The notes: a model not told the origin generated them from the letters alone. A stretch of DNA of 38,797 bases from Candidatus Micrarchaeota archaeon (GCA_021801765.1 JAJYXO010000005.1:1-38797); one strand, 5' to 3'. Counted from the first letter of the stretch, positions 3,365 through 26,786 are shown. Translations and numbers: made by a program.

Positions 3365-3366
3365 AC

Positions 3367-4047
3367 ATGGTGCTAAAAACTGTAACAGAAGCGGCATGGA
3401 TTTTTATATTTGCAGCAGCTATCTGCTCTGCACTCTTCTATGCAGATGGAGGCTCAGCTTCAATCTATCTCCTCCTTCCCGCATCGATAATCTTTGTAGC
3501 AACAGTCCACGGCCTTATGCAACACTTCCGTATCTTATATTCAAAGCATGCACGAGAGGAGGAGCTCGCCAAAGCCCTCAGGCTATTCATGTACTGCACT
3601 TCGCGCGGCATGCCTACAATAAAAGCCATTGAAAAAATACAATCTGAAGCTAGCTACAGTGCCACAGTCTCCTTGCTGCGCAGGGCATCTAAAAGAATGA
3701 AAATGGGCGAAGGTCTAGGCGAAGCGATAGAGCGCGCAGGCTTTTCCTGCCAGGATTTTTTGGTCAAAGCCCTGAAAGCAAAGCCACTTGCGGAGGCGCT
3801 AGAGGAGCATGAAAGGAGAAGAAAGGAGAGATTATTGCATATTAAAGAATCTTCCGGAATGAGAGCCACAATGAGCATGTTTGTATCTACTATAATGCCA
3901 TCGTTTATTATCTTCGCATATGTGGGTGGCAATGTTGCCTACAGCGAGAGAACAGGGATTCTGCCATTCTCACTAGGCATCTGCCTGATGCTTCCTGCAA
4001 TATACGCCATATGCGCTTCAATGCTGCGAAGGGGATTATTTGAATAA
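3367..4047 (+). CDS. Half-size pilus platform protein (T2SSF/TadB-TadC/FlaJ-like), copy 1
   Basis: 226 aa with N-terminal TM helices, a helical soluble core of about 120 aa (EELAKALRLF...RGMPTIKAIEKI...MGEGLGEAIERAG) matching the T2SSF pattern, and C-terminal TM helices. It starts 2 nt after the ATPase stop. Confidence 0.6.
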   Translation: MVLKTVTEAAWIFIFAAAICSALFYADGGSASIYLLLPASIIFVATVHGLMQHFRILYSKHAREEELAKALRLFMYCTSRGMPTIKAIEKIQSEASYSATVSLLRRASKRMKMGEGLGEAIERAGFSCQDFLVKALKAKPLAEALEEHERRRKERLLHIKESSGMRATMSMFVSTIMPSFIIFAYVGGNVAYSERTGILPFSLGICLMLPAIYAICASMLRRGLFE

Positions 4048-4771
4048 AATCATTATGGCATTTATCGTCGTGTGTGAATTGCTTATCCTTCTTGCGGTAA
4101 TCTACGGGATACCCTATGCTGCTGTAGCAGCATTGGCGCTTGGCTCAATGCACTTTTTCTTTTTTAAGACATATAATCAAAGGAAGGCAGAGATTGGGGC
4201 CGCGCTGGATAGCATTATAGCAGATTACACCAAAGGACGCTCTGCGGTCAGAGCAGCGCTGCACTCTACAATTCCTGAGCTCCGCGAAGTTGCAAGGACC
4301 TATATGCTTGGCGATTTTCTCTGCGAAGAAGAGGCAAAGCAGCATAGCCACATCGATGAGCTGAAGAATATGCTATCCTACGGCATTGTTTCCGGAAGGG
4401 ATATATGCGAGAGCCTGAAGATGATGAAAGGCAGGCTGGAATACGAGGCCGGAGTGCTAAGCGCAATCAAGGAGCATGCAGGCAGCATGGAGCTCCTCGC
4501 TTATGTTGGAGTAGTCTTTTTTGTGCCCTTGTTCGGTGGAATAAGCGCGAGCATAATGGGCAGCCTCACTACGATGGGCGGGGGAGGAGTCCAAGCCGGG
4601 GGGTTTACGCTGATAATCCTTATATACGTCACCTTTATTCTTTGCATAACATCCTCTCTTGCGAAACCTGAAGCAGGAATGCTGGAAAAGGCCTACGCCA
4701 TAGCTCCTGCGCTTCTGATATCATCTTCAATACTTTTCAGCCTGCCTCCATTCATGAATGGCATTTTATAG
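4040..4771 (+). CDS. Half-size pilus platform protein (T2SSF-like), copy 2
   Basis: 243 aa with the same architecture: N-terminal TM, helical core (GRSAVRAALHSTIPELREVA...SGRDICESLKMMKGRLE), C-terminal TM helices. It overlaps copy 1 by 8 nt. Confidence 0.55.
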   Translation: MNKIIMAFIVVCELLILLAVIYGIPYAAVAALALGSMHFFFFKTYNQRKAEIGAALDSIIADYTKGRSAVRAALHSTIPELREVARTYMLGDFLCEEEAKQHSHIDELKNMLSYGIVSGRDICESLKMMKGRLEYEAGVLSAIKEHAGSMELLAYVGVVFFVPLFGGISASIMGSLTTMGGGGVQAGGFTLIILIYVTFILCITSSLAKPEAGMLEKAYAIAPALLISSSILFSLPPFMNGIL

Positions 4772-4780
4772 GTGTAAAAA

Positions 4781-5053
4781 ATGGAAATGGAAAAACTCTT
4801 ATGGAAAATGTACAGTATGCTGCCTGCAGAGGCAAAGGCATTCCTTGCTCTGGCAAAAAGCAAAAAGGCCCAGGGGTCTCTGGAGTATATAATGATGGTG
4901 GCAGCTGCAAGCATAGTGATAGTTGTAGCGCTTGCCATGGTAGTGAAACTGAAAGGAGCCGTTATAAGCCATGTTTCTATAAACGGCACAAACGACAGCA
5001 TCTCCCAGGCCATATCCGGCGAGCTTGGGTCTCTCTCAAACACAATAGGGTGA
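4781..5053 (+). CDS. Pilin-like protein with class III (type IV pilin-like) signal peptide
   Basis: KKA-QGSLEYIMMVAAASIVIVVALAMVV has basic residues, then Q-x-S-x-E, then a hydrophobic helix. The leader is unusually long, so the true start may be an internal Met (codon 10 or 13). Confidence 0.7.
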   Translation: MEMEKLLWKMYSMLPAEAKAFLALAKSKKAQGSLEYIMMVAAASIVIVVALAMVVKLKGAVISHVSINGTNDSISQAISGELGSLSNTIG

Positions 5054-5445
5054 GTCGAATAAGACTGAAAGGCCAAATGTCATTAGAGTTCCTGCTCTAT
5101 TCTGCAGTCGCAGGCATAGCAATCGCGCTGTCTATCTATATGCTTGCCAGAACCGGAGGGGAGCTTTCAAGGGCCGTAGGAGCCTATATGGTTGGCAGGT
5201 TCTTCTCAGAGGCAAGCGCCGCTGCAGAATCCAGCGGTCAGTTTTACGCGTACCTCCCGCCTGGAATATGCAACTCCACAATCAATGGAAGCGAAGTAAG
5301 CACTGCATATGGGGATTTCTACATTCCTGGCAGGATTGAAATAAACAACAGATCTTTATGCCCTGACAAGATGTTCGCTTCGTTTGAAATAACATATAAC
5401 GATGCATCTGGCTCTGAAGAGGTGGTAAGACGCTTGTCCAGGTAA
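5050..5445 (+). CDS. Pilin-like protein with class III signal peptide (GTG start proposed)
   Basis: Only the 3' part of track ORF 4801..5445 looks real. A GTG at 5050, overlapping the previous TGA as GTGA, gives MSRIRLKG-QMSLEFLLYSAVAGIAIALSIYML. The alternative ATG at 5077 would leave no charged leader. Confidence 0.65.
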   Translation: MSRIRLKGQMSLEFLLYSAVAGIAIALSIYMLARTGGELSRAVGAYMVGRFFSEASAAAESSGQFYAYLPPGICNSTINGSEVSTAYGDFYIPGRIEINNRSLCPDKMFASFEITYNDASGSEEVVRRLSR

Positions 5446-5456
5446 GCGCAGAGGTA

Positions 5457-5627
5457 ATGGTAAGCATGGCTGTCTCATTATTGCTCGCTCTTGCATGCTC
5501 TATCCTCATAGCGCACATGTATCTGCTTGGCAGCTCCAGCTTGAATAGGATGCAATCCCTATATTCCAACTCGTATCTTTACTTCAAAGAGATGCTCGGC
5601 GCATGCAGCTGCCTCGAAGGCGTTTAA
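5457..5627 (+). CDS. Small hydrophobic-N-terminus protein (56 aa), possible minor pilin-like subunit
   Basis: Not in the track because it is under 60 aa. The ATG at 5457 is preceded by gaggt. The product is MVSMAVSLLLALACSILIAHMYLLGSS..., and its TAA ends at 5627, directly abutting the next start at 5628. Confidence 0.45.
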   Translation: MVSMAVSLLLALACSILIAHMYLLGSSSLNRMQSLYSNSYLYFKEMLGACSCLEGV

Positions 5628-5960
5628 TTGATGATCTCTGTTGATATGATAATCGCAGTGCCGCTGGTTGCCATAGCAATAACCTTAATCGCAGGAAGCT
5701 ATTATAGCGTACAGGCTTATACTGTCTCTGCTGCAGGATACGATGCGCATATAGAGGCAGCTTACGCTGCTTCCCAGGCAATAGAAACTGCGCTTTTATC
5801 AGCAGGCTATCCTTCGGAAATGGAAGCAACCGAGATCGCAAAGCCTTACGGCCTGCAGGCGCAGCTGCTGCCATTTTCCTACAATTTTTCTTGTGGATAC
5901 ATGGAAGCATGCCGTACTGCAACCATAGGGGGTAAGGAATATATACTGGCGGTGAAATGA
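5628..5960 (+). CDS. Pilin-like/membrane-anchored protein (N-terminal hydrophobic helix, no clear Q-x-S-x-E)
   Basis: MMISVDMIIAVPLVAIAITLIAG... Start is TTG at 5628 or ATG at 5631. It is translationally coupled on both sides, with an ATGA overlap with the next gene. Confidence 0.55.
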   Translation: MMISVDMIIAVPLVAIAITLIAGSYYSVQAYTVSAAGYDAHIEAAYAASQAIETALLSAGYPSEMEATEIAKPYGLQAQLLPFSYNFSCGYMEACRTATIGGKEYILAVK

Positions 5961-7246
5961 AGATAAAAACCCAGTCAAGCTTGGAGTTCTTGCTGATACT
6001 ATCTGCCATATCTGCATTAAGCCTTGCCGCGCTATCAATCTATGGGAAAGAAGTTGCTTATGGCAAGGATGCTGCATCCCTTATATTCAATGGAATAAAC
6101 TCTTCGCAAATCAACTATTCCACTACCTACCCTGACAACCCTGGAGTATCCATATATGTGCCAATAAATTCAAGCGCATACATGAAGAACAGAATGCAGA
6201 TAATTGCATATGGATGTGAAAGCGGATCTGCATCAGCGCACCTGAGCTCTACATCTATGGTATTTTCCGAAAATGCAATATCTGCAAAAGTCAATGGCAT
6301 CAGCATAATTGGGGATTACTTTGAGCCATTGTCAGTAGGAAACGGAGAGTTGAATGTTTCATACGCAATAAATTGCACAAACAAGAATCTCACCGGATCA
6401 GAGTCTTTTTCCACATATTCACGCGCCAACTCTACTTCCGAATCTGCCCCATTGTCATTTTATATGACGGATAGAAACGAATCTGAGCGCTACCCTATGG
6501 AAACTGGGGCTCTTTTATCCGCAAGCCAATTCAACCACTGCACCTATGTGAATTTCTTCGGGAACCCCTATGGGGTTGGACCTCAATGCGGCACCCCTGA
6601 TGCATGGGACTTTCGCGCATCAACGCAGCACTGCTATCAGGTTTATGTCTATACGATCACATATTGCGTAGTGCCAGAAGATTCAGGGTATAATCTCAGT
6701 TCTGTGGAGATTGGCAATGCCACTTATATCTACTATTTCACCATGCACATCAACTCTGGATATGGGGATCTGCTCTCGAGCATTTCCAGCAGCTCAAGGA
6801 ACTCTGAAGTCACTCTAAACGGCAGCAATGTGGGAAATGCCTCGGTATCCGATGTCTTTTCACAAATGCAACCTCTCTACACTGAGTTCATATCAAAAGA
6901 CACCTCCTACGCAAGCATAAACAGCTCTGCATACGAAATGTATTCTGAGGATAAAAATGGCCTATATTCTGAGCTTGGCTTCTACAATTCCACGCAGGTC
7001 TCATACGATACGGTTTCGCAGGAGGATGCTGCAGTCTCAGCATACCTGGCTTCAGTTCGCAGCTTGATAGGAAGCAATGGAAGCGTAGGCGCGGGTTGCG
7101 CCATATATAATGATACATACACATGCAAACCCAACCTGCCTTTTGAGTATGTAATAAACGTGACATTAAGCAAGGGCCTCGGGATTGGCAACGAGACCCT
7201 CTCTTACGAAGGCTCAATAGTCAACATAAAGGAGGCGAGCAATTGA
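5957..7246 (+). CDS. Large pilin-like protein with class III signal peptide and a sequon-rich extracellular domain (candidate adhesin or tip subunit)
   Basis: The N-terminus is MKIKT-QSSLEFLLILSAISALSLAALSIY. My manual count finds about 18 N-x-S/T sequons in 429 aa, plus several Cys residues. Confidence 0.75.
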   Translation: MKIKTQSSLEFLLILSAISALSLAALSIYGKEVAYGKDAASLIFNGINSSQINYSTTYPDNPGVSIYVPINSSAYMKNRMQIIAYGCESGSASAHLSSTSMVFSENAISAKVNGISIIGDYFEPLSVGNGELNVSYAINCTNKNLTGSESFSTYSRANSTSESAPLSFYMTDRNESERYPMETGALLSASQFNHCTYVNFFGNPYGVGPQCGTPDAWDFRASTQHCYQVYVYTITYCVVPEDSGYNLSSVEIGNATYIYYFTMHINSGYGDLLSSISSSSRNSEVTLNGSNVGNASVSDVFSQMQPLYTEFISKDTSYASINSSAYEMYSEDKNGLYSELGFYNSTQVSYDTVSQEDAAVSAYLASVRSLIGSNGSVGAGCAIYNDTYTCKPNLPFEYVINVTLSKGLGIGNETLSYEGSIVNIKEASN

Positions 7247-7608
7247 AGGCCCAATTTGCTATTTTAGAGGCAATGGTAGCACTTGCAGTTGCCATCTCTG
7301 TAACAATCTTCTGCATAAATGCAATAAGCAGCGAAGGCAGGTCATCTGCAATCTCTGAAACCCAGCTTCGCTTATCAGCAGCAGAGTATGATTTTATAAG
7401 AGGGATCTACGGCAATGAGAGCATGGGCACATGCATAAAATCTTACCTCTCTGGCAATACTGGCTGCATGATCAAATATAAAATGTATTATAAGAGAGTC
7501 TATGGCCTTGGCAGTTTCCGCATTATCGGAGAAAATGGCTCTGGAAACGGGGAGATTCGCTGCTTTCCATATACTAATTATACCGAAATATGCATACTTG
7601 CTGGGTGA
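7243..7608 (+). CDS. Pilin-like protein with class III-like signal peptide
   Basis: A TTG start at 7243 has ggagg 8 nt upstream and overlaps the previous TGA. The N-terminus is MKA-QFAILEAMVALAVAISVTIF. Confidence 0.65.
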   Translation: MKAQFAILEAMVALAVAISVTIFCINAISSEGRSSAISETQLRLSAAEYDFIRGIYGNESMGTCIKSYLSGNTGCMIKYKMYYKRVYGLGSFRIIGENGSGNGEIRCFPYTNYTEICILAG

Positions 7609-7900
7609 TATTATCGCTCTTTATGGAATTGCGCTTATCTTTATATCCCTTGCAGCTGCAATCTCTGTATCTTTTGTGACCCACGAAGCCTACTACCTGC
7701 GCGGGATAAGGCAGGAAGAGTATGGGGAAGCATCAGCAATGTTTGTAAGTTCATTTGCAACTGCATCTTCAGCACAGGGAATCAGCGCCGGCTACGCAGC
7801 ATTTGTTGCTTCTTACGACAGGCTCAACCTGAGCGAAGGGCTGCAGGGATATGAAATCTATGACCCTGCCAGCGGAACATTTGTGATAGGCAGGAGATGA
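7598..7900 (+). CDS. Small protein with N-terminal hydrophobic helix (start uncertain)
   Basis: The track ORF 7502..7900 overlaps the previous gene by 107 nt. A TTG at 7598 would give LLGDIIALYGIALIFISLAAAISVSFV... with only an 11-nt overlap. Starts at ATG 7502 or 7535 cannot be excluded. Confidence 0.45.
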   Translation: MLGDIIALYGIALIFISLAAAISVSFVTHEAYYLRGIRQEEYGEASAMFVSSFATASSAQGISAGYAAFVASYDRLNLSEGLQGYEIYDPASGTFVIGRR

Positions 7901-11611: not shown

Positions 11612-12576
11612 TACTGGCCCAGTACCTTGTCTATGGCCTTTGATATTTTAATTTCATTTGGCAGATAGTATTTCTCGTATCCTGGAAACGGGTATGGGAA
11701 ACTGTCGGATCCTACCCTGACAACAGGCGCCTGAAGTTCGTATATGGCCTTGTCAGCTATCCTTGCAGCTATCTCTGCACCTACGCCAAAGCTTAGCGGC
11801 GCTTCGTGGACTATTACCACCTTGCCTGTCTTTTTTACGCTGGCTATTATTGTCTCCTCGTCAAGCGGGGAGATAGTCCTTACGTCTATTATATCCGCAT
11901 CGAGCTTTCTCTTTTCAACAATATCGCTCACAGGCTTTACCATAGTGCCGTAGGTTATTATTGTTATTGCATTCCCCTCCCTTATCTTGCTTGCCTTGCC
12001 TATTTCCACTTCGTACATCTCATCTGGTATCTCTTGCCTGAATAGCCTGTACAGCTTAGTAGGCTCAAGAAAGAGCACAGGGTCTTCCATCCTAGATGCC
12101 TTGATTAGCAGCCCTTTTGCATCATACGGGTTCGAAGGCTCTACTATAACTAATCCCCCTATATTTGCATATACTGCTTCGGGGCTCTCAGAATGATGCT
12201 CCAGCGTCCTTACCCCGCCGCTCACCGGAGTCCTTATTACCATAGGCACCTTAAAGCGGGATCTGCTCCTTGATCTATATCTTGCAGCATGGTTTACTAT
12301 CTGGCTAAATCCAAGGTACATGAACCCTGCAAACTGTATCTCTGGTATAGGATGCAGGCCGGCAAGCGCCATGCCCACTGCGCTTCCGATTATCCCAGAC
12401 TCTCCCAGTGGTGTATCTATTACCCTTGACTCGCCGAACTTATCCAGCAGGCCTTCAGTAACGCGGAAGACGCCACCGTCCTTTCCTATATCTTCTCCAA
12501 GCAGTACAGCATTCTTGTTCTCCTTCATTATTAGCTCTAGCGCATTGTTTATCGCTGCGACCATATTTGCTTGCAT
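11611..12576 (-). CDS. 2-oxoacid dehydrogenase E1 component, beta subunit
   Basis: 321 aa with transketolase-like pyrimidine-binding and C-terminal domains (GEDIGKDGGVFRVT..., DTPLGESGIIG...). It sits between E1alpha and E2. Confidence 0.9.
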   Translation of the reverse strand: MQANMVAAINNALELIMKENKNAVLLGEDIGKDGGVFRVTEGLLDKFGESRVIDTPLGESGIIGSAVGMALAGLHPIPEIQFAGFMYLGFSQIVNHAARYRSRSRSRFKVPMVIRTPVSGGVRTLEHHSESPEAVYANIGGLVIVEPSNPYDAKGLLIKASRMEDPVLFLEPTKLYRLFRQEIPDEMYEVEIGKASKIREGNAITIITYGTMVKPVSDIVEKRKLDADIIDVRTISPLDEETIIASVKKTGKVVIVHEAPLSFGVGAEIAARIADKAIYELQAPVVRVGSDSFPYPFPGYEKYYLPNEIKISKAIDKVLGQ

Positions 12577-16454: not shown

Positions 16455-16549
16455 CTAAATACCATTATTGATAAGGGCATAAGCAGCTATAAACAATTCG
16501 CAACCCGCAAGATATGATTCGGATGCTTGGCATTTGCATCTAGTCGCTT

Positions 16550-17452
16550 TCACGGTGGGTTGTAGCTGTCTATCCATCCACTTGTAAACGAGATATCTGC
16601 TGGTATTACGTTGTTTCCGTTTCCAGAGTAGTCGTTTGCATTGCCATTGAGGGGCCACCAACCAACAAGGTTCTGCAGATCTATCGGTACTCCTCCGATT
16701 CCTTCCTGATAGATGGTATTTACTGAAGGCCAATCTAATGTATTATTATATTCCTGTACATTAGAGATACTCCCTTGAAAGAATCTATTACCGCAGCATT
16801 GCTGATAGCCAAAAATATTAAAGATCGGTGCTCCGTTATCCGGCGCAGCAGTAGATGCTGGGAACAATTCCCTCTGATTGTTCACATATATCGCTATGCT
16901 AGTAGAACTAATGGAGTAGCCTACAAAATTCCACCTGCCCAATTGCACTTGTAAGTTGCTATCGAAGTTAGTTTCCCCATTCCATACTACTACATTACCA
17001 TCTGTCATTAATGCTATCTGAAATGCGCCGCAATATGGCGAGTCTCCCCCGCATGAAAGTTGGTTACCGTCAAACTCAGATATAACTTGAAAATTACTAG
17101 ACCCAAAACTAGTGGGATATATCCACTGGAAATTGGAGAATGGAAACGCATAAATGCCATTTCCATATGCATAACTGCTCTGCCCGTTTAATTGTCCAAC
17201 ATATTTGGGCACTTCATTGTTGCAGACTCCAAGCAGGTTTATGTCGTATGAGGTCCCCGCGCCATTTGGCCGGAAAACCTGGCAGCTTCCTGGGTTAGCC
17301 TTTGGAGCGAAGTAGAGAGGATTGAAGACTCCGAGGTAGGCAAGAGCGCCTAGGACAACTGCTACAATCAGTATCGACCAGCCGTAGGTCATCAGGTACT
17401 CCATTGCAGATTGAAGCCTTGGATCATTACCTGACAAGGTATCATCTACCAT
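16550..17452 (-). CDS. Class III signal peptide protein fused to a LamG/concanavalin-like domain (paralog 1)
   Basis: N-terminus PRL-QSAMEYLMTYGWSILIVAVVLGAL. The centre follows a LamG-like pattern (LNGQSSYAYGNG..., W..VGYS...IYVNN, F.GSISNVQEYNNTL). The C-terminus carries WWPLNGNANDYSGNGNN. Confidence 0.75.
   Translation of the reverse strand: MVDDTLSGNDPRLQSAMEYLMTYGWSILIVAVVLGALAYLGVFNPLYFAPKANPGSCQVFRPNGAGTSYDINLLGVCNNEVPKYVGQLNGQSSYAYGNGIYAFPFSNFQWIYPTSFGSSNFQVISEFDGNQLSCGGDSPYCGAFQIALMTDGNVVVWNGETNFDSNLQVQLGRWNFVGYSISSTSIAIYVNNQRELFPASTAAPDNGAPIFNIFGYQQCCGNRFFQGSISNVQEYNNTLDWPSVNTIYQEGIGGVPIDLQNLVGWWPLNGNANDYSGNGNNVIPADISFTSGWIDSYNPP
16553..16735 (-). repeat. Conserved 3' block shared with 25857..26040
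   Basis: It includes an identical 33-mer, atctatcggtactcctccgattccttcctgata, at 16679-16711 and 25983-26015. The encoded C-termini are nearly identical. Confidence 0.75.
17201..17413 (-). repeat. Conserved 5' block shared with 26553..26765
   Basis: A manual alignment of about 193 nt (17221-17413 against 26573-26765) shows about 19 mismatches, roughly 90% identity. The block covers the signal peptide and the first 70 mature residues. Confidence 0.8.
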
Positions 17453-17501
17453 AAGGCGACGTAAAGGGCTAAAAATCTTATCAGAGATGCTCTATCTAAA
17501 T

Positions 17502-18125
17502 CTACTCTGCTTTTGCAAGCCTCTTCTTAACATGCTTAAGTGCAGAGAACATATCCCTATCTATCTCTTCAAGCCTCATGGATATGTACTTAGACTGGGC
17601 ATTGAAGCTGGGTATCAGTATGTAATCAAGCGCGTTGACTCTCCTCTTGGTCTTCTCTACTTCAATCACGAGTCTCCTCAGGCCCTGCTCCCTCTTCGCT
17701 ATGTCTACAACTGCGTCTACTGCCTCGTTGAAGGAATTATTTATATCCTCAACAGCTATGCTTGTGGAGATAAGGTTGAAGTTCACGCTGTTCTTCTTTC
17801 CTTCCCGCATCGCCTCAGGAATTCTGACCCCCATGATGTTTCGCACAGACATAATCACGGATTCTGTTTCCTTTACATTGTAGGCTACATCTTCCAGCTC
17901 AAAGTTGCCTACATATGTGGAAGCTGTAATTACGACTTTGTAAGATCGCTGCATCACTGCGTTCAGATAGTCTCTGCTCTTGCCCGACTGCTTTAGCAGC
18001 TTCATGAACTCAAGCACAAGGGCCTCCTGCTTCTTTTTCAGTATCCCATAGCCTTTCCTCGCAGTGCGTATCCTCCTCTTGGTCGAGATCAGGTTTATCC
18101 TTGTCGGGCTTGGTCTCTGCTGCAT
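17502..18125 (-). CDS. atpD: A-type ATP synthase subunit D
   Basis: PTRINLISTKRRIRTARKGYGILKKKQEAL is the typical V/A-type D subunit N-terminus. It is the last gene of the operon. Confidence 0.9.
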   Translation of the reverse strand: MQQRPSPTRINLISTKRRIRTARKGYGILKKKQEALVLEFMKLLKQSGKSRDYLNAVMQRSYKVVITASTYVGNFELEDVAYNVKETESVIMSVRNIMGVRIPEAMREGKKNSVNFNLISTSIAVEDINNSFNEAVDAVVDIAKREQGLRRLVIEVEKTKRRVNALDYILIPSFNAQSKYISMRLEEIDRDMFSALKHVKKRLAKAE

Positions 18126-18126
18126 G

Positions 18127-19506
18127 TCACTTCCTCTGGTAATACTTCTTTACGTACTCCTCCTTTATCCTTGTCAGTTCATCCTCAGGGAGCATAGAGA
18201 GAAGTTTCCATCCTATTGTCAGCGTCTCCTCTATTGTTCTGCTTTCGTTGAATCCCTGCTTTATGAATTCGTTCTCGAATTGTTCGCCAAATGCGAGGTA
18301 TCTCCTGTCGCTCTCGCTAAGCGCCTCTGCACCTACTATGGAGCTGAGGCTCCTCGCCTCAAGTGCGCGTGAGTATGCACCATATAGCTGATCTGCCACT
18401 CCTCTATGGTCTTCCCTGGTCTTCCCCTTGCCTATCCCGAAATTCATGAGCCTCGAGAGTGAGCCTGTTGGATTTATCGGAGGATATATGCCTTTGTTGC
18501 TCATGCCTCTGTCCAGGAACATCTGACCCTCTGTTATGTATCCTGTCAGGTCTATTATCGGATGCGTTACGTCATCGCTAGGCATAGTCTCTATGCTTAG
18601 CTGCGTTATGCTTCCCTTCTTCCCTTTTATTATTCCCGCCCTCTCGAAGATGCTTGCAAGATCCGTGTACATGTATCCTGGGTATCCTCTCCTACCTGGC
18701 ACCTCTTCCCTGGCGCTGGAGAGCTCCCTCAGCGCCTCGCAGTAGTTCGTCATATCGTCAAGTATGACTAGCACGTGCATGTTCTTCTCAAATGCAAGGT
18801 ACTCTGCAGTTGTCAGCGCAAGCCTTGGGGTGAGTATCCTCTCTATGCTTGGATCCCCTGCCAAGTTTATGAACGCGACAGTCCTTTTCAGTGCACCTGT
18901 CTTCCTAAACTCCCTCACGAAGTAGTCAGAATCGTCATAGGTTATGCCTATTCCTGCAAATACAACTGCAAAATCCTCGCTCATATCCTTGACGCGCGCC
19001 TGCCTTGTGATCTGCGCTGCAAGTTCGTTATGTGGAAGCCCCGATCCTGAGAATATCGGAAGCTTCTGCCCCCTGACAAGCGTGTTAAGCCCGTCTATGG
19101 TCGAGATTCCAGTCTCTATGAAATCACTTGGCATCCCTCTTGCCGCAGGGTTTATTGGCTCTCCGTTTATGTCCATCCTCTTCGAATAAGGAACCTCCCT
19201 GCCGCCATCTATAGGTCGACCTTGCCCATCAAAGATCCTGCCTAGCATCTCCTCGCTTACGCCTGCCTTAAAAGTCTCTCCGAGGAAACTCACCGACGTA
19301 TCGCTAACATTTATTCCGTTTGTGGGTCCGAAAACCTGGACTACGGCATGCTTATCGCTTGTATCCAGCACCTGCCCCAGCCTCTCTTCTCCGTCCTTCA
19401 TCTTTATCCTGACTATCTCGTTATACGCAGCATTGCCTACCCTGCCTACTACAACCAGCGGGCCTGCAACGCTCTCTATTGTTTCATATTCTATCTCAAA
19501 CTCCAT
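18127..19506 (-). CDS. atpB: A-type ATP synthase subunit B
   Basis: High-confidence B-subunit pattern (GPLVVV..., [27 protein letters not shown]). I place the start at MEFEIEY (19506), with aggtga 5 nt upstream. The track's 12-aa extension overlaps the end of atpA. Confidence 0.95.
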
Positions 19507-19516
19507 GATATCACCT

Positions 19517-21307
19517 CTACTTCTTACCCTGCTTCGCTTCAATCGGAGCCTCTTCAGCCTTTACAAGCTCCGCAGTTTCTCTATCTATGCTATCGTTTAT
19601 TCTCTTTGCAACGCTTTCTATCTCCTTTTCCTCAACTCCTTTCATCCTCGAAATTTCAGCTTTCACTTTCATGCTGCTTATGTTATCAGAAGGCACCCCC
19701 TTTAATACTGCCTCTGTAGCAGCATCTGCAAAATGCATTATCGTCCTTAGCATCAGGCTCTGCTTTTTCATGCTCGAAAATGCATCTATTTCATCGAAGG
19801 CACTCTGCCTGAGGAAATCTTCCCTCAGCATCCTGCCTATTGTGAGAAGCACACGCTCTGAGTCCGGTAGCGCATCCTCACCTACCAGCTGCACTATATC
19901 CTTAAGCTCAGCCTCCCTCTGCAAGAGCTTCATGGCCCTCGCCCTGTCCTCTACGAAATTTTCGTTTACATTTTTTACATACCACCCCTTCAACGCTTCG
20001 TGGTATAAAGAGTAGCTGTTCAGCCAGTTTATGGATGGGAAGTGTCTGGCGCCTGCCAGCGATGCATCGAGAGCCCAGAAAACCTTTGCTACCCGCAGCG
20101 TTCCCTGCGTCACCGGTTCTGAGATATCCCCTCCAGTGGGCGAGACTGCGCCTATCAGCGTTACAGACCCTGTCTTCCCGCTCAAAGCTTCAACTCTTCC
20201 GCTCCTTTCGTAATATTCTGCAAGCCTCTTTGGCAGATAGGCAGGGTAGCCCTCCTCCCCGGGCATCTCTTCGAGCCTTGCTGAGATCTCTCTCATGGCC
20301 TCCGCCCACCTTGATGTTGAATCTGCCATGACTGCCACTCCATATCCCATATCTCTGAAATATTCTGCGATTGTTATTCCAGTGTATATGCTGGCTTCCC
20401 TTGCTGCAACAGGCATATTGCTTGTATTGGCAATCAGCACTGTTCTCTGCATGAGCGGTTTGCCGGTATAAGGATCCTTCAGTTCCGGAAACTCAGTGAG
20501 CACGTCAGTCATCTCATTTCCGCGCTCGCCGCATCCGACATATATGACTATATCTGCATTTGACCATTTCGCAAGGGACTGCTGCAGAACAGTCTTACCG
20601 CTGCCGAAAGGACCTGGCACTGCTGCAGTTCCGCCTTTGGCAACAGGGAAGAATGTATCTACTACCCTCTGGCCTGTCACCAGCGGTTCATCAGATGCGA
20701 ACTTCCTCCTGAACTTCGCAGGAGATCTTACCGGCCTCTTCTGCATCATCTGCACTTCAATCTCCTTTCCCTTATGTTCTATTCTTGCTACCGTATCAAT
20801 TATAGTGAAACTGCCTTTCTTTATCTCCTTTATCTTTCCGTCTACACCTGAAGGCACCATTATGTAATGCTTTATAATCTCCGTCTCCTGTACATATCCC
20901 AGTATTGCGCCTTCACTTACGTGTTCTCCTTTCTTCGCAGTAGGGTTGAATATCCATTTCTTCCTCCTATCAAGCGGCGTTGCGCTTATGCCTTTGCCTA
21001 TGAAAGAGCCGCTCTTCCTAATCAGCTCTTCAAGAGGCCTCTGTATTCCATCATATATCTTTGTAAGTATCCCCGGTCCTAACTCTACGGATAGCTGCGC
21101 TGCGGTAGAGACTACGGGTTCTCCTGGCCTTATCCCTGTTGTGTCCTCGTAGACCTGTATTATCGCGTTCTCTCCCTTCAACTGTATTATCTCGCCGACG
21201 AGCTCCGATCTTCCTACCTTCACTACGTCGTACATCCTGCTGCCAAGCATATCCTTCGCTATCACCAGCGGTCCCGATATTCTACTAATAGATCCCATTT
21301 TATGCAC
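19517..21307 (-). CDS. atpA: A-type ATP synthase catalytic subunit A
   Basis: Walker A GPFGSGKT and the non-homologous-region length typical of A subunits. At 596 aa it has no intein. Confidence 0.95.
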
Positions 21308-21647
21308 CTATCTTCTCTATATCTATGCCTATCGCCCTCATTACGAGCTTCCTTAATGTATCCGGCCTGAACTCTTCTCTGTACTCCGGAACTTCAACGA
21401 ACATAGGCAACAGGCTGCTTTCAACAGCATGCCTTATTTTCTTGTCCTTCAGTCCCTTTGAGACTGTTGACGTTATCACAATTATCCCTATGTCATCTGC
21501 ATCAAGCAGCTTCCTTATCGCATCTTCTGCATCCTCTACGTTCTCCGCGGAGAAGGCGTCTCTAACTCCTGCTAGCTTGAAACCCAGCGCTAGCTCGGCA
21601 TTGCCAACTACTGCTACTCTGTACTTCCTTTCTAGATCTCCGACCAT
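21300..21647 (-). CDS. atpF: A-type ATP synthase subunit F
   Basis: 115 aa. [18 protein letters not shown] is the F-subunit signature. It overlaps atpA by 8 nt. Confidence 0.85.
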
Positions 21648-22693
21648 GTTATCAGCTTAGAGGTTTCATCCTTCGACAATCCATATATCTTGCTCTTCAC
21701 CAGTATCCTGAGAGCGAAAATTTCCGTCTCCTTAAGATAGACGTAGGCTAGCAGGGCGCTGAAGGATAGCACCGCATGCCTAAGCATCTTAAGGCTCTTG
21801 TTGAATAGCTGGTTCCGCATCGCTATCTCAAACAGTATCAGTTGCTTACTCTCTCTGTATTGCTCTTCAGCCTGTTTCAGATCAAAGGATCCTGCCTTTG
21901 AGGCGATTGCAGATATATTCTCAGAATTCGAGTAGAGGTTCCTCATGGCATTCGCATCCATTCCACCTCTGGGTATAAGGCTGCCCTGTATCTCTTGGAA
22001 TGGCATCCCCCTCGCCTTGCCCCTTATGAGTATGAGCAGATTCTTCATATCTATATCCATTCGGATTATGGAAACTGCAGGATCCTTGGTTTCCAATAGC
22101 CTAGTTATGGCATTCTCGAGCATGCCGTAATATCCTAAGTCTATTGCTGCTGCAGCTGCTACTGCGTCTCCGCTGCTCTCATAAGCCTTTATTGCATCAG
22201 CCATAATGCGCGAGTAAGGAGCGTTTTTCTCCAGCCTTCTTAGCATCTCGACCACGCTGCTCTCTCTCATTGTCTCCTTTATTGCGGCTGCATTGTACCT
22301 GCCGTAATCAACCACATACTGCGCTATCGCTTCGTAAGGCAAGCCCCTTTCCTTGGCCTCTATTGCGAGCTTAACATTGCTGAGCTCCAACTTCCCAGTA
22401 AGGCTCCTTATTATTGCCCTATCCTCCTTAGGCGTAATCTCCACAAGCCTGCCGAGCCTTTCCGCCATATTTCTGCTAAGCGCGAAATCTATCATGGAGT
22501 TGCGTATGTCCACCCCTCCGAACTCTGTTAGCGCCTTTCCGTAATCAGTCTGGATAAGAAGGGAAATTACTGCACCTCTGTCAGGCGCTGCAACAATCGC
22601 TTGCATCGCCTGTCTCCCAAGCAGTTTGGCTTCCATGGCCTTAACTCTGGTATTCGAGTAACCATACCTTAATGCTTTTCCATATATTCCCAT
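21632..22693 (-). CDS. atpC: A-type ATP synthase subunit C
   Basis: A 353-aa helical protein in the conserved position between E and F. It overlaps atpF by 16 nt. Confidence 0.8.
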   Translation of the reverse strand: MGIYGKALRYGYSNTRVKAMEAKLLGRQAMQAIVAAPDRGAVISLLIQTDYGKALTEFGGVDIRNSMIDFALSRNMAERLGRLVEITPKEDRAIIRSLTGKLELSNVKLAIEAKERGLPYEAIAQYVVDYGRYNAAAIKETMRESSVVEMLRRLEKNAPYSRIMADAIKAYESSGDAVAAAAAIDLGYYGMLENAITRLLETKDPAVSIIRMDIDMKNLLILIRGKARGMPFQEIQGSLIPRGGMDANAMRNLYSNSENISAIASKAGSFDLKQAEEQYRESKQLILFEIAMRNQLFNKSLKMLRHAVLSFSALLAYVYLKETEIFALRILVKSKIYGLSKDETSKLITWSEI

Positions 22694-22697
22694 CAGC

Positions 22698-23252
22698 TCA
22701 CTTGAAAAGCGCCTTGGATATGGCGCTCCTTATCCTCCCTGCATTACTCTCTACCACTCCTTCAGGACTCAGGGCAAGCCTTATCTTCCTGTCTCCAGAG
22801 AAGAGAACCGCTCCATCGATGTTGGCGTAGTTTACGTTTTTTAGGCCTTTCACCAGTGCGGCGTATCTCTTGTTTACCTCTGCGAAGACCTCTCCGCTTT
22901 CAGAAATCTCATTGAATCTTGCCAATGCTCTCTTAATTATCGCAGGCATATACTTTTCCGCTATTTCCTTCATGGCCTCTTTCTTTGCTGTGCTCATCTC
23001 TTTCTCTACTGCTTCTTCCATAGCTGAATTGACTATCCTTGCAGCCTCTACCTCTGCCTCAGCCTCCTTCTCACCGAGCAGCAGCCGAGCTCCCTCCTTC
23101 GCCTCCTCGCGGGCTTTGGAGATTCTTTCTGCGGCCGCTTTTCTTGCTTCCTCAAGTACCCTTTCTACCTCCTTCTCTGTCTCTCTGCTTATCCTCGCAG
23201 CCCCTGACCTGGCTTCGTGCTCTATGCTCTCCTTAATCTCTGGTAGTGCCAT
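22698..23252 (-). CDS. atpE: A-type ATP synthase subunit E (peripheral stalk)
   Basis: 184 aa with an Ala/Glu/Lys-rich coiled-coil N-terminus and a globular C-terminus. The operon position fits. Confidence 0.8.
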   Translation of the reverse strand: MALPEIKESIEHEARSGAARISRETEKEVERVLEEARKAAAERISKAREEAKEGARLLLGEKEAEAEVEAARIVNSAMEEAVEKEMSTAKKEAMKEIAEKYMPAIIKRALARFNEISESGEVFAEVNKRYAALVKGLKNVNYANIDGAVLFSGDRKIRLALSPEGVVESNAGRIRSAISKALFK

Positions 23253-23264
23253 TGATTCTCCACC

Positions 23265-23507
23265 TTATACAAATCCTGCACCCAGCATTATCAACACAGC
23301 CACCACGAAGCCAAAGATCATTAGCGTTTCAGGGAGCACAAGAAAGAGCAATACCCTTCCCATCTCCTCTGGTTTCTCAGCTATCAAACCTATGCCCGCG
23401 CTGCCTATTCCTGCTTGCGCTATGCCAGTAGCTATTGCGCCACCTAGTATGGCAATCCCAGCTCCTATCGCCGCAACCGCGGCGCCCAATGTTATGCTTG
23501 CTACCAT
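23265..23507 (-). CDS. atpK: A-type ATP synthase proteolipid subunit K (c)
   Basis: An 80-aa two-helix hairpin with a Gly/Ala-rich helix 1 and the conserved carboxylate in helix 2 (LVLPETLMIFG). Confidence 0.9.
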   Translation of the reverse strand: MVASITLGAAVAAIGAGIAILGGAIATGIAQAGIGSAGIGLIAEKPEEMGRVLLFLVLPETLMIFGFVVAVLIMLGAGFV

Positions 23508-23515
23508 TTTTTCAC

Positions 23516-25372
23516 CTATTCTTTAGTATAAACCCTCTTGTAAGAGAAAGGCCTGAACTTGATTCCTCCGCCTTCGTAAAACTTTGTAAAGAACTCAACG
23601 AAGTTTAGCCTTATACCCTGCAAGATGCCCTCGAATATCGAGACTATCATATTAAGGAAATGTAATATCATAAACGGTATCAGCAGCACTATGAAGACCA
23701 GCGGCCCGCCGTTTAGCGTAGGAGTAAATGCCTTGTCTATAAGAAATGCTATCATAACGCTCGAAAGCCCAAATCCCATTATCCTGGTGTAGCTGAGTAT
23801 GTGCGTAAGGAGGTTAGGCACCTCCCCTGCCTCGCTTCCGCTGAGCGCCATCGTCGCAACAAATGAGATTATGGCTGCAATGCCGCACGCTTCTGTGAGC
23901 ACTGGCCCGAATGCATTGAAGAGCCCTCCTCCTATTGCAATAAAGCCTGAAAGTATAAGAATTATGGAAGTTATTTTGCTTGCGGCTGCCTTCATATGCC
24001 CTCTTCTGTATTTATTAACAAATCCGAACGCAAGTCCTGCTGTCACCTGTGCAATGCCGAATATGACTGTAATGTACAATATCGTAGTTATGTTGGTTGT
24101 CCAGTTGAGTATGCTTAGGCTTGTGAAGTATTGGTTGATTCCCAGACCGAGGTACTGGTTGGTTATAAAACCAAATACAATAGCTGCTATGGAGCTTATC
24201 TGCCATATGCTTGCTGCGTTATACACTAATCCTTCAGGGTTAGTTCGCCTCTTTATCCATATGGTAAAGAGGAAGGAGATTATTCCATATCCTACGTCCG
24301 ATATCATCAAGCCATAGAATATTGGGAACGAGATTATGAATATCCATGTTGGATCTATCTCATCGCTTCTTGGCAGCGAGAAGAATTCAACCATATAATC
24401 AAAAGGTCTAAGGAGCTTAGGCCTCGAGATCAATGTGGGCGCTAACTCATCGCCGCTGCCCATATCTTCGATATAATGCCTCTCTCCTATCTCCTTTCTA
24501 ATCGAATGCCTCAGTTCGTGCATCCTCTTCTTCGGCACCCATCCTTCAACTACAAAGAGCATCTCTGTCTTCTTGAACATCTCCCTTATGCTGCCCCTCT
24601 CTTCCTCTATCTGGAGCATCTCCTTCATGTTGGATAGCTTCGAGTAATATTTCTCACTCAGCGCGGAGAGTCTCTCCCGGAGCTTCTCTGCCTCTTTTCT
24701 ATTCTCTTCCTTCATTGATCTTACATTCTTCAGCATCTTTTCTGGCGTTCCTTCTACATATGCGCTCCTGAAATCGAACTCCTTGAGCTTGTGGTTTCTT
24801 GCGAATTCATCTATGTTCTCTTCAGGGCCGCTTGCTATCAGCGCAACGCCATTTCCCTTTGTGCCATAGAACGAGATTTTTGCCTTATGCGCTGCATTTT
24901 TAAGGTCTGCCTTGAGCTTCTCAGATTCATCAAGATCCACCTCGAATCCCCTTATGCTTATGTGTTTAGTATTAAGCTTTGAGAAATCTATGCCGCTCTC
25001 CATGAAAGAGAGGGCTATCCTCTCGGCATAGGAGAGCAGCCTCTCTCCTTCTCCTATCTCCCTAATTTTCTCGTTTGCATTGTATATCTCATCTATAGCC
25101 CCTAGCTCTTTTGCTTCTGCTATTAGTTGTTCCATTGGCATATGTTTCTCTGGCTTAATCTCTTTTTTTTCCAGTAGGTTCAGCGCGCCGCCTACCCTTA
25201 CAATTAGTTCAGAAAGCTCGCCTACGTATTCCGGAGCAGCATCGTTTCCGAGGTCAAGTTTGCTCTTCCTCATGTCGAGCATGCCAAACCTGTGCAGCGC
25301 AGTAACGACTCTATCTTTATCCTTCCCAAGACAAACGAGCCTTACCTTCTGCATAGGCTCAGTTCTTAACAT
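23516..25372 (-). CDS. atpI: A-type ATP synthase subunit I (a)
   Basis: 618 aa with a cytoplasmic coiled-coil N-terminal half and a polytopic membrane C-terminal half. The operon position fits. Confidence 0.9.
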   Translation of the reverse strand: MLRTEPMQKVRLVCLGKDKDRVVTALHRFGMLDMRKSKLDLGNDAAPEYVGELSELIVRVGGALNLLEKKEIKPEKHMPMEQLIAEAKELGAIDEIYNANEKIREIGEGERLLSYAERIALSFMESGIDFSKLNTKHISIRGFEVDLDESEKLKADLKNAAHKAKISFYGTKGNGVALIASGPEENIDEFARNHKLKEFDFRSAYVEGTPEKMLKNVRSMKEENRKEAEKLRERLSALSEKYYSKLSNMKEMLQIEEERGSIREMFKKTEMLFVVEGWVPKKRMHELRHSIRKEIGERHYIEDMGSGDELAPTLISRPKLLRPFDYMVEFFSLPRSDEIDPTWIFIISFPIFYGLMISDVGYGIISFLFTIWIKRRTNPEGLVYNAASIWQISSIAAIVFGFITNQYLGLGINQYFTSLSILNWTTNITTILYITVIFGIAQVTAGLAFGFVNKYRRGHMKAAASKITSIILILSGFIAIGGGLFNAFGPVLTEACGIAAIISFVATMALSGSEAGEVPNLLTHILSYTRIMGFGLSSVMIAFLIDKAFTPTLNGGPLVFIVLLIPFMILHFLNMIVSIFEGILQGIRLNFVEFFTKFYEGGGIKFRPFSYKRVYTKE

Positions 25373-25373
25373 T

Positions 25374-25697
25374 CTATATACCTATAATATCTTTTACTAC
25401 TTTCTTGACGACGTTAGAGAGCTCCACCTTGCCTAGCCTTCTGGATCTCAGTTTTGATGCTGCTTTCTCAGCATCGGAGATTATCTTCTTCCTGGAATCC
25501 GCAGCGTCTTTCTCAGCTTTTTCAATAGCTTCCTTTCTGATTTCTACGGCTTTTGATTCTGCATCAGCTATAATCTCCCTTGCCTTCTCCTGGGCCTTAC
25601 CAATTGAAGAGATTTTTGCATTATTTGCTTTATCAAGAAGGAGGTCGGCCTTCTTTTCCGCTTCCTGTAATTCCCTTATCGGGTCAGGCTTCTCCAT
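25374..25697 (-). CDS. atpH: A-type ATP synthase subunit H (peripheral stalk)
   Basis: A 107-aa highly charged coiled coil (AEKKADLLLDKA...AREIIADAESKA). It is the first gene of the operon. Confidence 0.7.
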   Translation of the reverse strand: MEKPDPIRELQEAEKKADLLLDKANNAKISSIGKAQEKAREIIADAESKAVEIRKEAIEKAEKDAADSRKKIISDAEKAASKLRSRRLGKVELSNVVKKVVKDIIGI

Positions 25698-25803
25698 AAC
25701 TCATCCCTTAAATTTAAACTGGGACTCACGACGCAAAAAAGTACAACGCTATTAGTTTAAAAGAGCATATTTATAAGCTTTATTGTAAAAGGCATGCAAC
25801 TCA

Positions 25804-25831
25804 TGCATATGATCTGCAGATCATTTATGCA
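25804..25831. promoter_or_regulatory. Near-perfect 28-nt inverted repeat containing the perfect 16-nt palindrome ATGATCTGCAGATCAT (25809-25824)
   Basis: The sequence is tgcatatgatctgcagatcatttatgca. It lies between the stop of the upstream LamG-pilin gene (25854) and the ATP synthase promoter region. Confidence 0.5.
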
Positions 25832-25853
25832 AATAAACTCTGCATAGATGGTG

Positions 25854-26786
25854 TCATGGTGCACTATAACCACTCATCCAACTATTTGCAAACAAGATGT
25901 TTGTAGGCACGCCATTGTTCCCGTTTCCTGAATAATCGTTTGCGTTTCCATTCAGCGGCCACCAGCCTACAAGGTTATGCAAATCTATCGGTACTCCTCC
26001 GATTCCTTCCTGATAAAGTGCATTTACGGAAGGATAGTCCAAAGAGGAATTATACATCTGCATATCAGCTATGCTAACTGCTGAATATCCTCCTTCTCCT
26101 CCTCCTACCACGAAGTTTCCAGTACCAGCGGTTGCAGGGCCGTTTGCCACGCCTGAGCTAAACTGAAGAAGATTCGAATACCCAAGGCTAGAATAACCGA
26201 CGTAGTAATCTGCGCTGCCTGCTGCATAGTTATAAGTAAAGCATGCAAAAACCCATTTGCCTTGCAAATCAGCATAGGAGAAGTAATCACTTGAAGCTGT
26301 AGCTATGTTTCCACCTCCCTGATTCCATACGGTAAATCCTTCTATGCCTCCCCCCTGATCCATTGTATATTCCCAAGAATTGCCATTGCTAGGAGATAAC
26401 TCGCCTTTAATCATCGGGCCAGCATAACCTGTGTAGGAGTTTACCCTATACCACATGCAGAACGTCATTGCGCCATTTGCTCCAGCTTCAGGACTAAGCA
26501 TTGCGCCATTCCCGAAGTTAACCAGCGAATCCTTCCCATTGAATGTCGCAGCATACTTGGGTATCTCGTTGCTGCAGACTCCAAGAAGGTTTATGTCATA
26601 TGAGGTTCCAGCGCCGTTTGGCCGGAAAACCTGGCAGCTTCCTGGATTTGCCTTCGGAGCGAAATAAAGAGGATTGAAGACTCCAAGATAGGCGAGCGCG
26701 CCTAGGACAACTGCTACAACCAGTATGGACCATCCGTAGGTCATCAGGTACTCCATCGCTGATTGGGATCTTCGGCAATATGGCAT
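25854..26786 (-). CDS. Class III signal peptide protein fused to a LamG/concanavalin-like domain (paralog 2)
   Basis: N-terminus RRS-QSAMEYLMTYGWSILVVAVVLGAL. The centre is LamG-like (FNGKDSLVNFGNG, MTFCMWYRV, WVFACFTYN, SIADMQMYNSSL). The C-terminus carries WWPLNGNANDYSGNGNNG. Confidence 0.75.
   Translation of the reverse strand: MPYCRRSQSAMEYLMTYGWSILVVAVVLGALAYLGVFNPLYFAPKANPGSCQVFRPNGAGTSYDINLLGVCSNEIPKYAATFNGKDSLVNFGNGAMLSPEAGANGAMTFCMWYRVNSYTGYAGPMIKGELSPSNGNSWEYTMDQGGGIEGFTVWNQGGGNIATASSDYFSYADLQGKWVFACFTYNYAAGSADYYVGYSSLGYSNLLQFSSGVANGPATAGTGNFVVGGGEGGYSAVSIADMQMYNSSLDYPSVNALYQEGIGGVPIDLHNLVGWWPLNGNANDYSGNGNNGVPTNILFANSWMSGYSAP
25857..26040 (-). repeat. Conserved 3' block shared with 16553..16735
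   Basis: See the partner feature. The blocks share an identical 33-mer. Confidence 0.75.
26553..26765 (-). repeat. Conserved 5' block shared with 17201..17413
   Basis: See the partner feature. About 90% nt identity by manual alignment. Confidence 0.8.

Follow-up and report, generated by a model that had tools for sequence, protein, structure and literature searches.

Two genes that lie on either side of the nine-gene ATP synthase (atp) operon in a 38,797-nt stretch of DNA from a Candidatus Micrarchaeota archaeon (GCA_021801765.1 JAJYXO010000005.1:1-38797; the whole stretch is called the window here) were analyzed, and are termed gene A and gene B. Each is predicted to encode a type IV pilin-like N terminus followed by a lectin-like domain of the LamG class. 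The preferred reading of the data, to which a probability of roughly 0.65 is given, is that A and B are members of a large family of modular type IV pilin-like proteins of the Micrarchaeota (DPANN), tiny archaea of acid mines, in which the central cores are old and the ends have been homogenized by occasional gene conversion. The end blocks evolve in concert within a lineage, and the cores are inherited as orthologues that are old and stable.

When the two genes were aligned, similarity was found to start precisely at the Q of QSAMEYLMTYGW, predicted to be mature residue 1, and no similarity was seen between the leaders (MVDDTLSGNDPRL in A, MPYCRRS in B) or in the upstream DNA. From that residue onwards, the constant N-terminal block (N block) showed 88.3% DNA identity over 213 nt, with 68 of 71 residues (96%) identical, in good agreement with the figure of about 90% over the first 210 or so nt given by a sequence-only reading of this DNA. 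The central cores (~ 150–165 aa) were barely alignable, as that reading had also stated, with 21–23% protein identity and a DNA identity of ~ 59% that is background level. The last ~ 180 nt had been called highly similar. The exact 33-mer reported there is real (16679–16711 = 25983–26015), but 'highly' is generous for a C-terminal part that, taken as a whole, showed 76% DNA identity over 177 nt and 70% protein identity (69-aa block), with 85% DNA identity over the best 120 nt. Exact matches of 33, 29, 23 and 22 nt were present between A and B, and the ends form two direct repeats, D1 (17180–17413 and 26532–26765, 86%) and D2 (16541–16771 and 25845–26075, 72%); no other long repeats occur in the window. 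For codons chosen independently, the N block would be expected to reach a DNA identity of 75.9 ± 2.2%; the observed value stood at z = 5.6 and was reached in 0 of 5000 simulations, and the N-block DNA identity is therefore higher than protein conservation alone would give. For the 120-nt stretch of the C-terminal block (C block), the same comparison gave z = 3.0.

The evolutionary relationship between the ends and the cores was further studied using a quartet made up of A, B and their closest core relatives, which are P0002 (= L001g) for A and L003c (followed by P0121) for B and which come from lineages with a different stem. Between A and B, the N block was 96% identical in protein and 88% in DNA and the core 21% identical in protein, while for A and L001g the N-block values were 68% and 69% with a core identity of 64%, and for B and L003c they were 66% and 69% with a core identity of 61%. 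The two relatives repeated the pattern seen for A and B, with N blocks 88% (protein) and 81% (DNA) identical and cores at 27%. A 3-residue stem indel separates the two lineages and is common to all paralogues of each. Alignment columns were then bootstrapped, with 2000 replicates per segment. The N block placed A with B, and L001g with L003c, in 2000 of 2000 replicates, and third codon positions, where A and B were identical at 0.69 of positions vs 0.40–0.47 for the alternatives, did likewise. The core placed A with L001g, and B with L003c, again in 2000 of 2000, and the C block returned to the grouping of A with B (1976/2000). In a sliding quartet, the first switch fell at mature residue ~ 73 (window position ~ 17195 in A and ~ 26547 in B) and the second at residue ~ 221 in A and ~ 238 in B (~ 16753 and ~ 26054). 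This conflict between the trees of the ends and of the cores cannot come from descent with selection alone, and recombination is required. The mosaic had been attributed to gene conversion or cassette exchange of an exposed binding domain. That the mosaic is real and needs recombination is upheld by the quartet; a recent conversion between A and B, and cores that are freshly exchanged cassettes, are not. The cores belong to old orthologous groups present in other lineages (61–64% identity) and lie at single-copy depth across four studies.

Many synonymous differences separate the ends of A and B. In the N block, the proportion of synonymous differences (pS) was 0.41, the synonymous divergence (dS) 0.60 and the nonsynonymous divergence (dN) 0.022, and the resulting dN/dS of ~ 0.04 denotes strong purifying selection. 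The best 40 codons of the C block gave pS 0.55, dS ~ 1.0 and dN 0.033. These values speak against any recent A–B conversion. Across six N blocks of the A/B stem type, pS ranged from 0.25 to 0.62, and homogenization is therefore occasional, and old on the scale of strains. The lowest value belonged to two paralogues 10 kb apart in the same genome, and two paralogues 2.5 kb apart on contig L003 gave 0.27; A and B are each other's closest N blocks among the six by a small margin (0.41 vs 0.44–0.62). Judged from these comparisons, the DNA identity between A and B is for the most part a product of purifying selection on the protein together with an old shared origin.

The same layout was found throughout the family. 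A search with gene A returned 2828 relatives at E ≤ 0.001, named as LamG domain proteins of Candidatus Micrarchaeaceae or Micrarchaeota, and pairwise segment identities were computed on 113 of the best 120 of these. Mean pairwise protein identity was 75% in the N block, 29% in the core and 72% in the C block, and the 273 pairs with N blocks at least 95% identical had a mean core identity of only 31%. The share of family members identical to A was 5% in the leader, 63–85% in the N block, 7–34% in the core and 80–93% at residues 251–280. The A/B stem type was carried by 32 members with 28 core types, and 12 core types were found on more than one stem type. The family is thus multi-copy and variable, its divergence is mosaic rather than uniform, and the constant–variable–constant pattern, taken earlier as a property of the A–B pair, is the architecture of the family as a whole. 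A and B are ordinary members of this large, partly described family of Micrarchaeota pilin-like LamG proteins, of which the genome that carries them holds at least four copies. We think the novelty here lies in spelling out the architecture, in which a variable leader and a constant pilin block precede an old variable core and a constant closing block, and in the evidence for concerted evolution of the constant blocks within genomes.

Two further searches were less informative. A metagenome scan with a 29-nt N-terminal pattern gave six loci, all of them other pilin families with QSAMEYLMTYGW, and no further members with the A/B stem; a protein search with the N block alone recovered only short partial proteins at contig ends and was useless for counting cores. 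Contigs L018, L019, L022 and L032 end at or inside family genes, and many database members are partial (P0124–P0172). As the constant blocks break short-read assemblies, metagenome-assembled genomes (MAGs) probably undercount the copies. Family member P0086 is labelled as a Saccharimonadales bacterium and probably derives from a mis-binned archaeal contig.

The behavior of the two genes in natural populations was then considered. Window DNA was present in mine-drainage, sediment, soil and tailings metagenomes, and the cores of A and B were at the depth of single-copy flanks in mine-drainage, sediment and soil runs from four studies (2019–2022). In public runs, the points where the k = 31 contigs broke coincided exactly with the N and C blocks of A and B, N-block bins had word depths of up to ~ 1000 vs ~ 23 in the flanks (~ 45×), and many contigs of 550–750 nt ran from N block to C block with an unrelated middle. 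The blocks are therefore common to many genes in each community. Population variation of the central domain was a check proposed along with the first description of the mosaic. The cores were stable across runs; relative to the window, the gene A core had 0 differences in X1, X2 and X6, 22–23 in X9 and X12, and 43 in X4. The gene A allele in X9 and X12 differed mainly in two tight patches, one at 16823–16832 (5 changes in 10 nt) and one at 17189–17213 (13 changes in 25 nt, converting NEVPKYVGQL to NEIPQYVAEF), the latter placed exactly at the boundary of N block and core. No exact donor of the gene A substitution patch was found among the loci compared, the best candidates having 5 mismatches in 29 nt. 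In X4, the gene A core differed by 7.6% and the flanks by ~ 2%; outside two conversion-like patches, this allele showed 11 synonymous and 0 replacement changes in codons 89–143 vs 3 and 9 in codons 155–232 (Fisher p = 3e-4). The second half of the gene A core may be a fast-evolving and possibly ligand-facing part.

A comparison with strain L017 revealed 25 differences in 20.9 kb, none of them in gene A and nine in gene B (binomial p = 7e-7). Seven of these nine were single-nucleotide polymorphisms (SNPs) clustered in 120 nt at 26392–26511, six of them synonymous. Diversifying selection on gene B in the population was rejected as the cause, seven of the nine differences being synonymous, and the cluster looks like an imported allele tract. 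A similar tract was observed away from the pilin genes, at 12397–12429, where the 2-oxoacid dehydrogenase E1 beta gene has seven SNPs in 33 nt relative to contig L018, with 99.8% identity elsewhere in that contig. In this population, homologous recombination among strains is therefore common and not special to pilin genes.

Several other explanations can be set beside the preferred one. It could be that the family is a system of active cassette shuffling, in which the constant blocks serve as recombination handles and whole cores move between loci on ecological time, altering adhesin specificity, but this is unlikely. The tight substitution patches in the gene A alleles of X9, X12 and X4, with one at the boundary of N block and core, are in its favor, as are the breaking of assemblies at the constant blocks and the identical end words common to many cores. 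The best hint of cores moving between loci is contig L022. For 10.5 kb it matches contig L021 (GCA_027355525.1) at 100%, through the 5′ flank and leader of a P0012-type paralogue and on to nt 95 of the mature coding sequence. From nt 82 up to the end of L022 (nt 375) the match, again at 100%, is with the P0015 gene, for which a sibling MAG has a separate locus with a leader of its own (L022 10465–10896 vs L021 20100–20954 and L030 6001–6876). The two parental sequences overlap by only 14 nt, less than an ordinary de Bruijn chimera would need if the parents are as observed. L022 may be a real recombinant or an assembly chimera, and the possibility of an artefact counts against shuffling. So does the N-block dS of 0.25–0.6, which argues for rare events, and so does the single-copy depth of the A and B cores in the runs of the four studies. 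In addition, the window holds no silent cassettes, invertase or retroelement. Partial donor cassettes of the pilE/pilS type were absent from the window, and all copies seen were complete, full-length open reading frames (ORFs) with their own start codon and leader. No reverse transcriptase was present among the scanned ORFs and no template-like repeat in the window, as a diversity-generating retroelement would require, and the cores differ in length and throughout.

In Neisseria, pilin antigenic variation at pilE/pilS arises by gene conversion from silent cassettes. The Micrarchaeota family resembles that system in having a constant N-terminal part, a variable exposed part and, probably, nonreciprocal recombination among copies. 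It differs in that each copy is complete with its own leader and no silent cassettes are seen, in that it is the conserved parts that are homogenized, and in that events are rare by synonymous divergence. A related proposal, that a repertoire of dozens of lectin cores sits in homogenized handles and that cores or parts of cores have moved between pilin loci, a movement that the L022 hybrid hints at, retuning which host surface is bound, is regarded as unlikely. If it were true, core movement would be an archaeal, DPANN-specific counterpart of pilin antigenic variation.

A second alternative is that A and B swap ends or cores with each other by mutual conversion, with the essential atp operon between them as a guard that leaves only noncrossover events viable. 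This is very unlikely. The two genes do form direct repeats with the exact matches listed above, their N blocks are each other's closest among the six, both end blocks group A with B in the quartet, and the layout of the sequence means that a crossover would delete 17453–25853. To this extent the geometry of the earlier argument, in which conversion without crossover would be the tolerated outcome, is sound; nothing, however, shows an effect on the genes. Values of dS this high (N block 0.60, C block ~ 1.0) indicate no recent exchange, and same-genome paralogues elsewhere are as close or closer in the N block (pS 0.25, 10 kb apart). Apparent A/B deletion joints in public contigs were assigned to other paralogues, since one side of them had only 23 letters and the depth exceeded that of the flanks.

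The relatives also lack the arrangement. A family gene on both sides of the operon was found at 0 of 14 related atp loci (anchored on AtpD, in Micrarchaeota MAGs). The order ArgRS, orf27500, DUF460, atpH, atpI ... atpD was kept in L003, L004 and L008, and in all three the spacing of ~ 500 nt between DUF460 and atpI leaves room for atpH and none for gene B. In L003, the closest relative, the gap between DUF460 and atpH is free of a gene B, and the B orthologue is found downstream of atpD as one of four tandemly arrayed pilin genes. Because of the missing arrangement in all 14 relatives and the downstream position of the L003 orthologue, the bracket is taken to be lineage-specific. It looks incidental that A and B flank the operon, and the arrangement is best read as an accident of this lineage with no part in any mechanism. 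Note that contig L014, which carries a Micrarchaeota-type atp operon, is labelled as a Candidatus Acidiferrales bacterium and is probably mis-binned.

A third alternative does without recombination and supposes that the genes duplicated long ago, the ends then being held by strong purifying selection as the core diverged fast. It draws on the N-block dN/dS of ~ 0.04 at substantial synonymous divergence and on end blocks that are conserved across the family, where structural or assembly constraint is certain, but it is highly improbable given core orthologues (61–64%) in lineages with N blocks only 65–70% identical vs 96% between A and B, a grouping by genome that holds at third codon positions (A–B 0.69 vs 0.40–0.47), a 3-residue stem indel common to all paralogues of a lineage, and an N-block DNA identity 5.6 standard deviations above the codon-usage expectation.

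The character of the encoded proteins was examined using domain searches and structure prediction. Gene A matched Pfam Laminin_G_3 (PF13385) at 40 bits, against a cut-off of 27.6; gene B itself had no Pfam match, and its orthologues P0121–P0123 carry PF13385. A family profile matched LamG/ConA-like PDB chains with E down to 9e-9. Structure prediction of the central domains by AlphaFold, followed by Foldseek, gave a jelly-roll lectin fold for both proteins. The gene A model, with a predicted local distance difference test score (pLDDT) of 77.6, has a helix at 15–39, a poorly defined stem, a beta sandwich at 84–234, a helix at 240–249 and closing strands, and matched pentraxin/LamG folds (E = 3e-9) over ~ 230 columns. 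The gene B model (pLDDT 68) has a helix at 9–32 and a ConA/LamG-type jelly roll, and matched ConA-like lectin folds (E = 1e-7). Among the matches of the two models were pentraxins, LG domains, botulinum toxin Hc lectin-like domains, sialidase CBM40 and legume lectins. A circular permutation of the LamG domain was considered, since LVGWWPLNGNANDYSGNGNN resembles the usual start of Laminin_G_3, and was rejected: moving the tail before the core did not extend the Pfam match, which covered profile positions 24–150 in both forms (41.4 vs 40 bits).

At the N terminus, a prepilin-like motif could be recognized by eye, reading R-L/QSAMEYLMTYGWSILIVAVVLGALAYLG in A, with the E at +5, and R-S/QSAME in B. 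The short leader, the basic residue before Q+1, the E at +5 and the long hydrophobic helix are traits of class III (prepilin) signals. The QSAMEYLMTYGW N terminus is also carried by other, non-LamG pilins of Micrarchaeota, both small and large. One such, a 154-aa small pilin (L021 10977–11438), lies directly after a LamG paralogue, and another, an 830-aa pilin with a repeat-rich C terminus (L003 13151–15643), lies within the tandem array; both start with QSAMEYL(M/L)TYGW, which is therefore a general pilin N terminus of the group. The stem has two invariant cysteines, C56 and C76 in alignment numbering (residues 57 and 77 of the full gene A protein), and the C block opens with a conserved N-glycosylation-type sequon, YN-[T/S/N]-[S/T]-L (16750–16765 and 26040–26055). 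Together, the sequon and the cysteines suggest a disulphide-bridged, glycosylated extracellular stalk. The proteins are best regarded as putative pilus-displayed adhesins, probably minor or tip pilins, whose targets would be glycans or surface features on host archaea or in the biofilm.

In the preferred reading, the protein is built in five parts. A short variable leader would be removed at a predicted prepilin-peptidase site before Q+1, with E at +5, and would be followed by a hydrophobic helix of ~ 25 residues, a stem of ~ 45 residues with the two invariant cysteines and a LamG/ConA-like jelly-roll lectin module. The N block would be kept constant for processing, membrane extraction and filament packing, and the C block as the closing helix and strands of the jelly roll. 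The core would carry the diversity, presumably on its ligand-binding face. Cores would represent an old repertoire of dozens of orthologous groups that predates the split of the compared lineages, and occasional gene conversion between the paralogues of a lineage would homogenize the N block, and less strongly the C block, with strong purifying selection keeping them alike afterwards.

A number of observations weigh against this picture. The quartet lineages are MAGs, in which binning or assembly errors are possible for a repeated gene family. Neither Pfam Class_IIIsignal nor NCBIfam matched the N termini of A or B, although PF04021 does match the ORF at 4801–5445, and NCBIfam gave nothing informative for either protein; pilin membership therefore rests on motif, helix and context. 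The gene A leader is acidic, which is unusual in prepilins, and the stem is poorly modelled in both proteins (pLDDT ~ 50–60), leaving a pilin globular module doubtful. The place of the C block in the jelly roll is inferred from the length of the Foldseek alignments (~ 230 columns), and ligand binding by the lectin-like core is assumed from the fold only. Finally, three metatranscriptomes of the same study do not cover the organism, not even its atp genes; they yielded only short N-block-like fragments from other family members.

The window is archaeal, and gene A and AtpD both find their homologues in MAGs of Candidatus Micrarchaeota or Micrarchaeaceae. Sibling contigs 99.8–99.9% identical to it are present in GCA_027355525.1 and in one ENA assembly. 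The coordinates confirmed that, as first described, A and B lie on the same (minus) strand and flank the nine-gene atp operon (Table 1). Gene A starts 49 nt after the atpD stop, gene B ends 156 nt short of the atpH start, and the gene B ATG is preceded at a distance of ~ 26 nt by an AT-rich, TATA-like motif, TTTATAAA. The operon itself is context for the two genes and stands outside the pilin-LamG family. Also encoded are arginyl- and leucyl-tRNA synthetases, replication factor C subunits, a 2-oxoacid dehydrogenase operon and a P-type ATPase, and an IS200-like Y1 transposase ORF (38288–38710; Pfam Y1_Tnp, E = 8e-39) lies at the window edge.

A type IV filament locus was identified ~ 10 kb away in the window. 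It comprises an ATPase of the FlaI/TadA type (1913–3364, T2SSE match), two T2SSF-like platform genes (3367–4047 and 4040–4771) and two pilin-like ORFs with Q-x-S-x-E motifs (4801–5445 and 5957–7246), the first of which matches Pfam Class_IIIsignal PF04021 at 23.8 bits. Its layout with two platform genes agrees with the 'system 1' that a 2026 preprint on filament machineries in archaea describes. The window yielded no prepilin peptidase gene. The locus could assemble pilins such as A and B.

Table 1. Positions of genes A and B, their segments and associated loci in the window.
Feature	Position	Strand	Basis and remarks
Gene A	16550..17452	minus	300 aa; ORF and translation
Gene A leader	17414..17452	minus	13 codons, MVDDTLSGNDPRL; alignment, no likeness to gene B leader
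Gene A constant N block	17195..17413	minus	Mature residues 1 to ~ 73: QSAMEY, hydrophobic helix, stem with two invariant Cys
Gene A variable core	16754..17194	minus	LamG jelly-roll strands; orthologue P0002/L001g, 64% identical
Gene A C block	16553..16753	minus	Helix and last strands, LVGWWPLNGNANDYSGNGNN motif, tail; includes exact 33-mer
Gene B	25854..26786	minus	310 aa; architecture as gene A
Gene B constant N block	26547..26765	minus	Alignment, sliding quartet, direct repeat D1
Gene B variable core	26055..26546	minus	Orthologues L003c 61%, P0121 54%
Gene B C block	25857..26054	minus	Includes exact 33-mer 25983–26015
Nine-gene A-type ATP synthase operon (atpH, I, K, E, C, F, A, B, D)	17502..25697	minus	Pfam; gene calls with Pfam on sibling contig L017; synteny in 14 relatives
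Type IV filament locus (ATPase, two platform genes, pilin-like ORFs)	1913..7900	plus	T2SSE and T2SSF matches

Parts of this architecture have counterparts in known systems. The adhesion pilins PilA1–6 of Haloferax volcanii reportedly have a conserved hydrophobic N terminus in common, and so would resemble the present family as paralogous archaeal pilins with a near-identical N-terminal domain and a differing remainder. They are, however, said to be small, major-type pilins with no lectin module or conserved C block and with a far smaller repertoire. The modular-pilin layout of the Streptococcus sanguinis PilB/PilC type is present in A and B, which have a pilin-like helix and stem followed by a lectin-fold module. 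PilC of that organism joins a pilin moiety to a glycan-binding module of the ConA-like lectin type (PMC9934059, PMC8179133). By its description, PilC has a class III signal and N-terminal helix onto which a ConA-like or LamG-type module is grafted, much as is predicted for the A/B proteins, and a role as an adhesive minor or tip pilin is proposed for both. In contrast, the A/B family is archaeal, has a short Cys-bridged stem with no recognizable pilin globular domain and immunoglobulin linker, and is multi-copy, with dozens of core types and homogenized ends. Within the same phylum and domain family, an expansion of LamG-like jelly-roll proteins was reported for Micrarchaeon Mia14, some of the genes lying by type IV pilus loci and a host interaction being presumed (Golyshina et al. 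2017, PMC5498576); the portion of that paper drawn on here does not describe a pilin-type N terminus, the constant–variable–constant architecture or concerted ends.

Micrarchaeota, like other DPANN archaea, live attached to archaeal hosts. The significance of the family is independent of the ATP synthase operon, which is a bystander. The public annotation 'LamG domain-containing protein' misses the pilin part, and because the constant blocks break short-read assemblies, family genes are often partial, or possibly chimeric, in MAGs. The family provides a clean archaeal case of segment-specific concerted evolution, in which the scaffold is homogenized within genomes and the binding modules remain orthologous. 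It is also a concrete candidate for the recognition layer of these organisms, as a large, putatively pilus-borne set of lectins in which each lineage combines dozens of old core types with a shared pilin scaffold.

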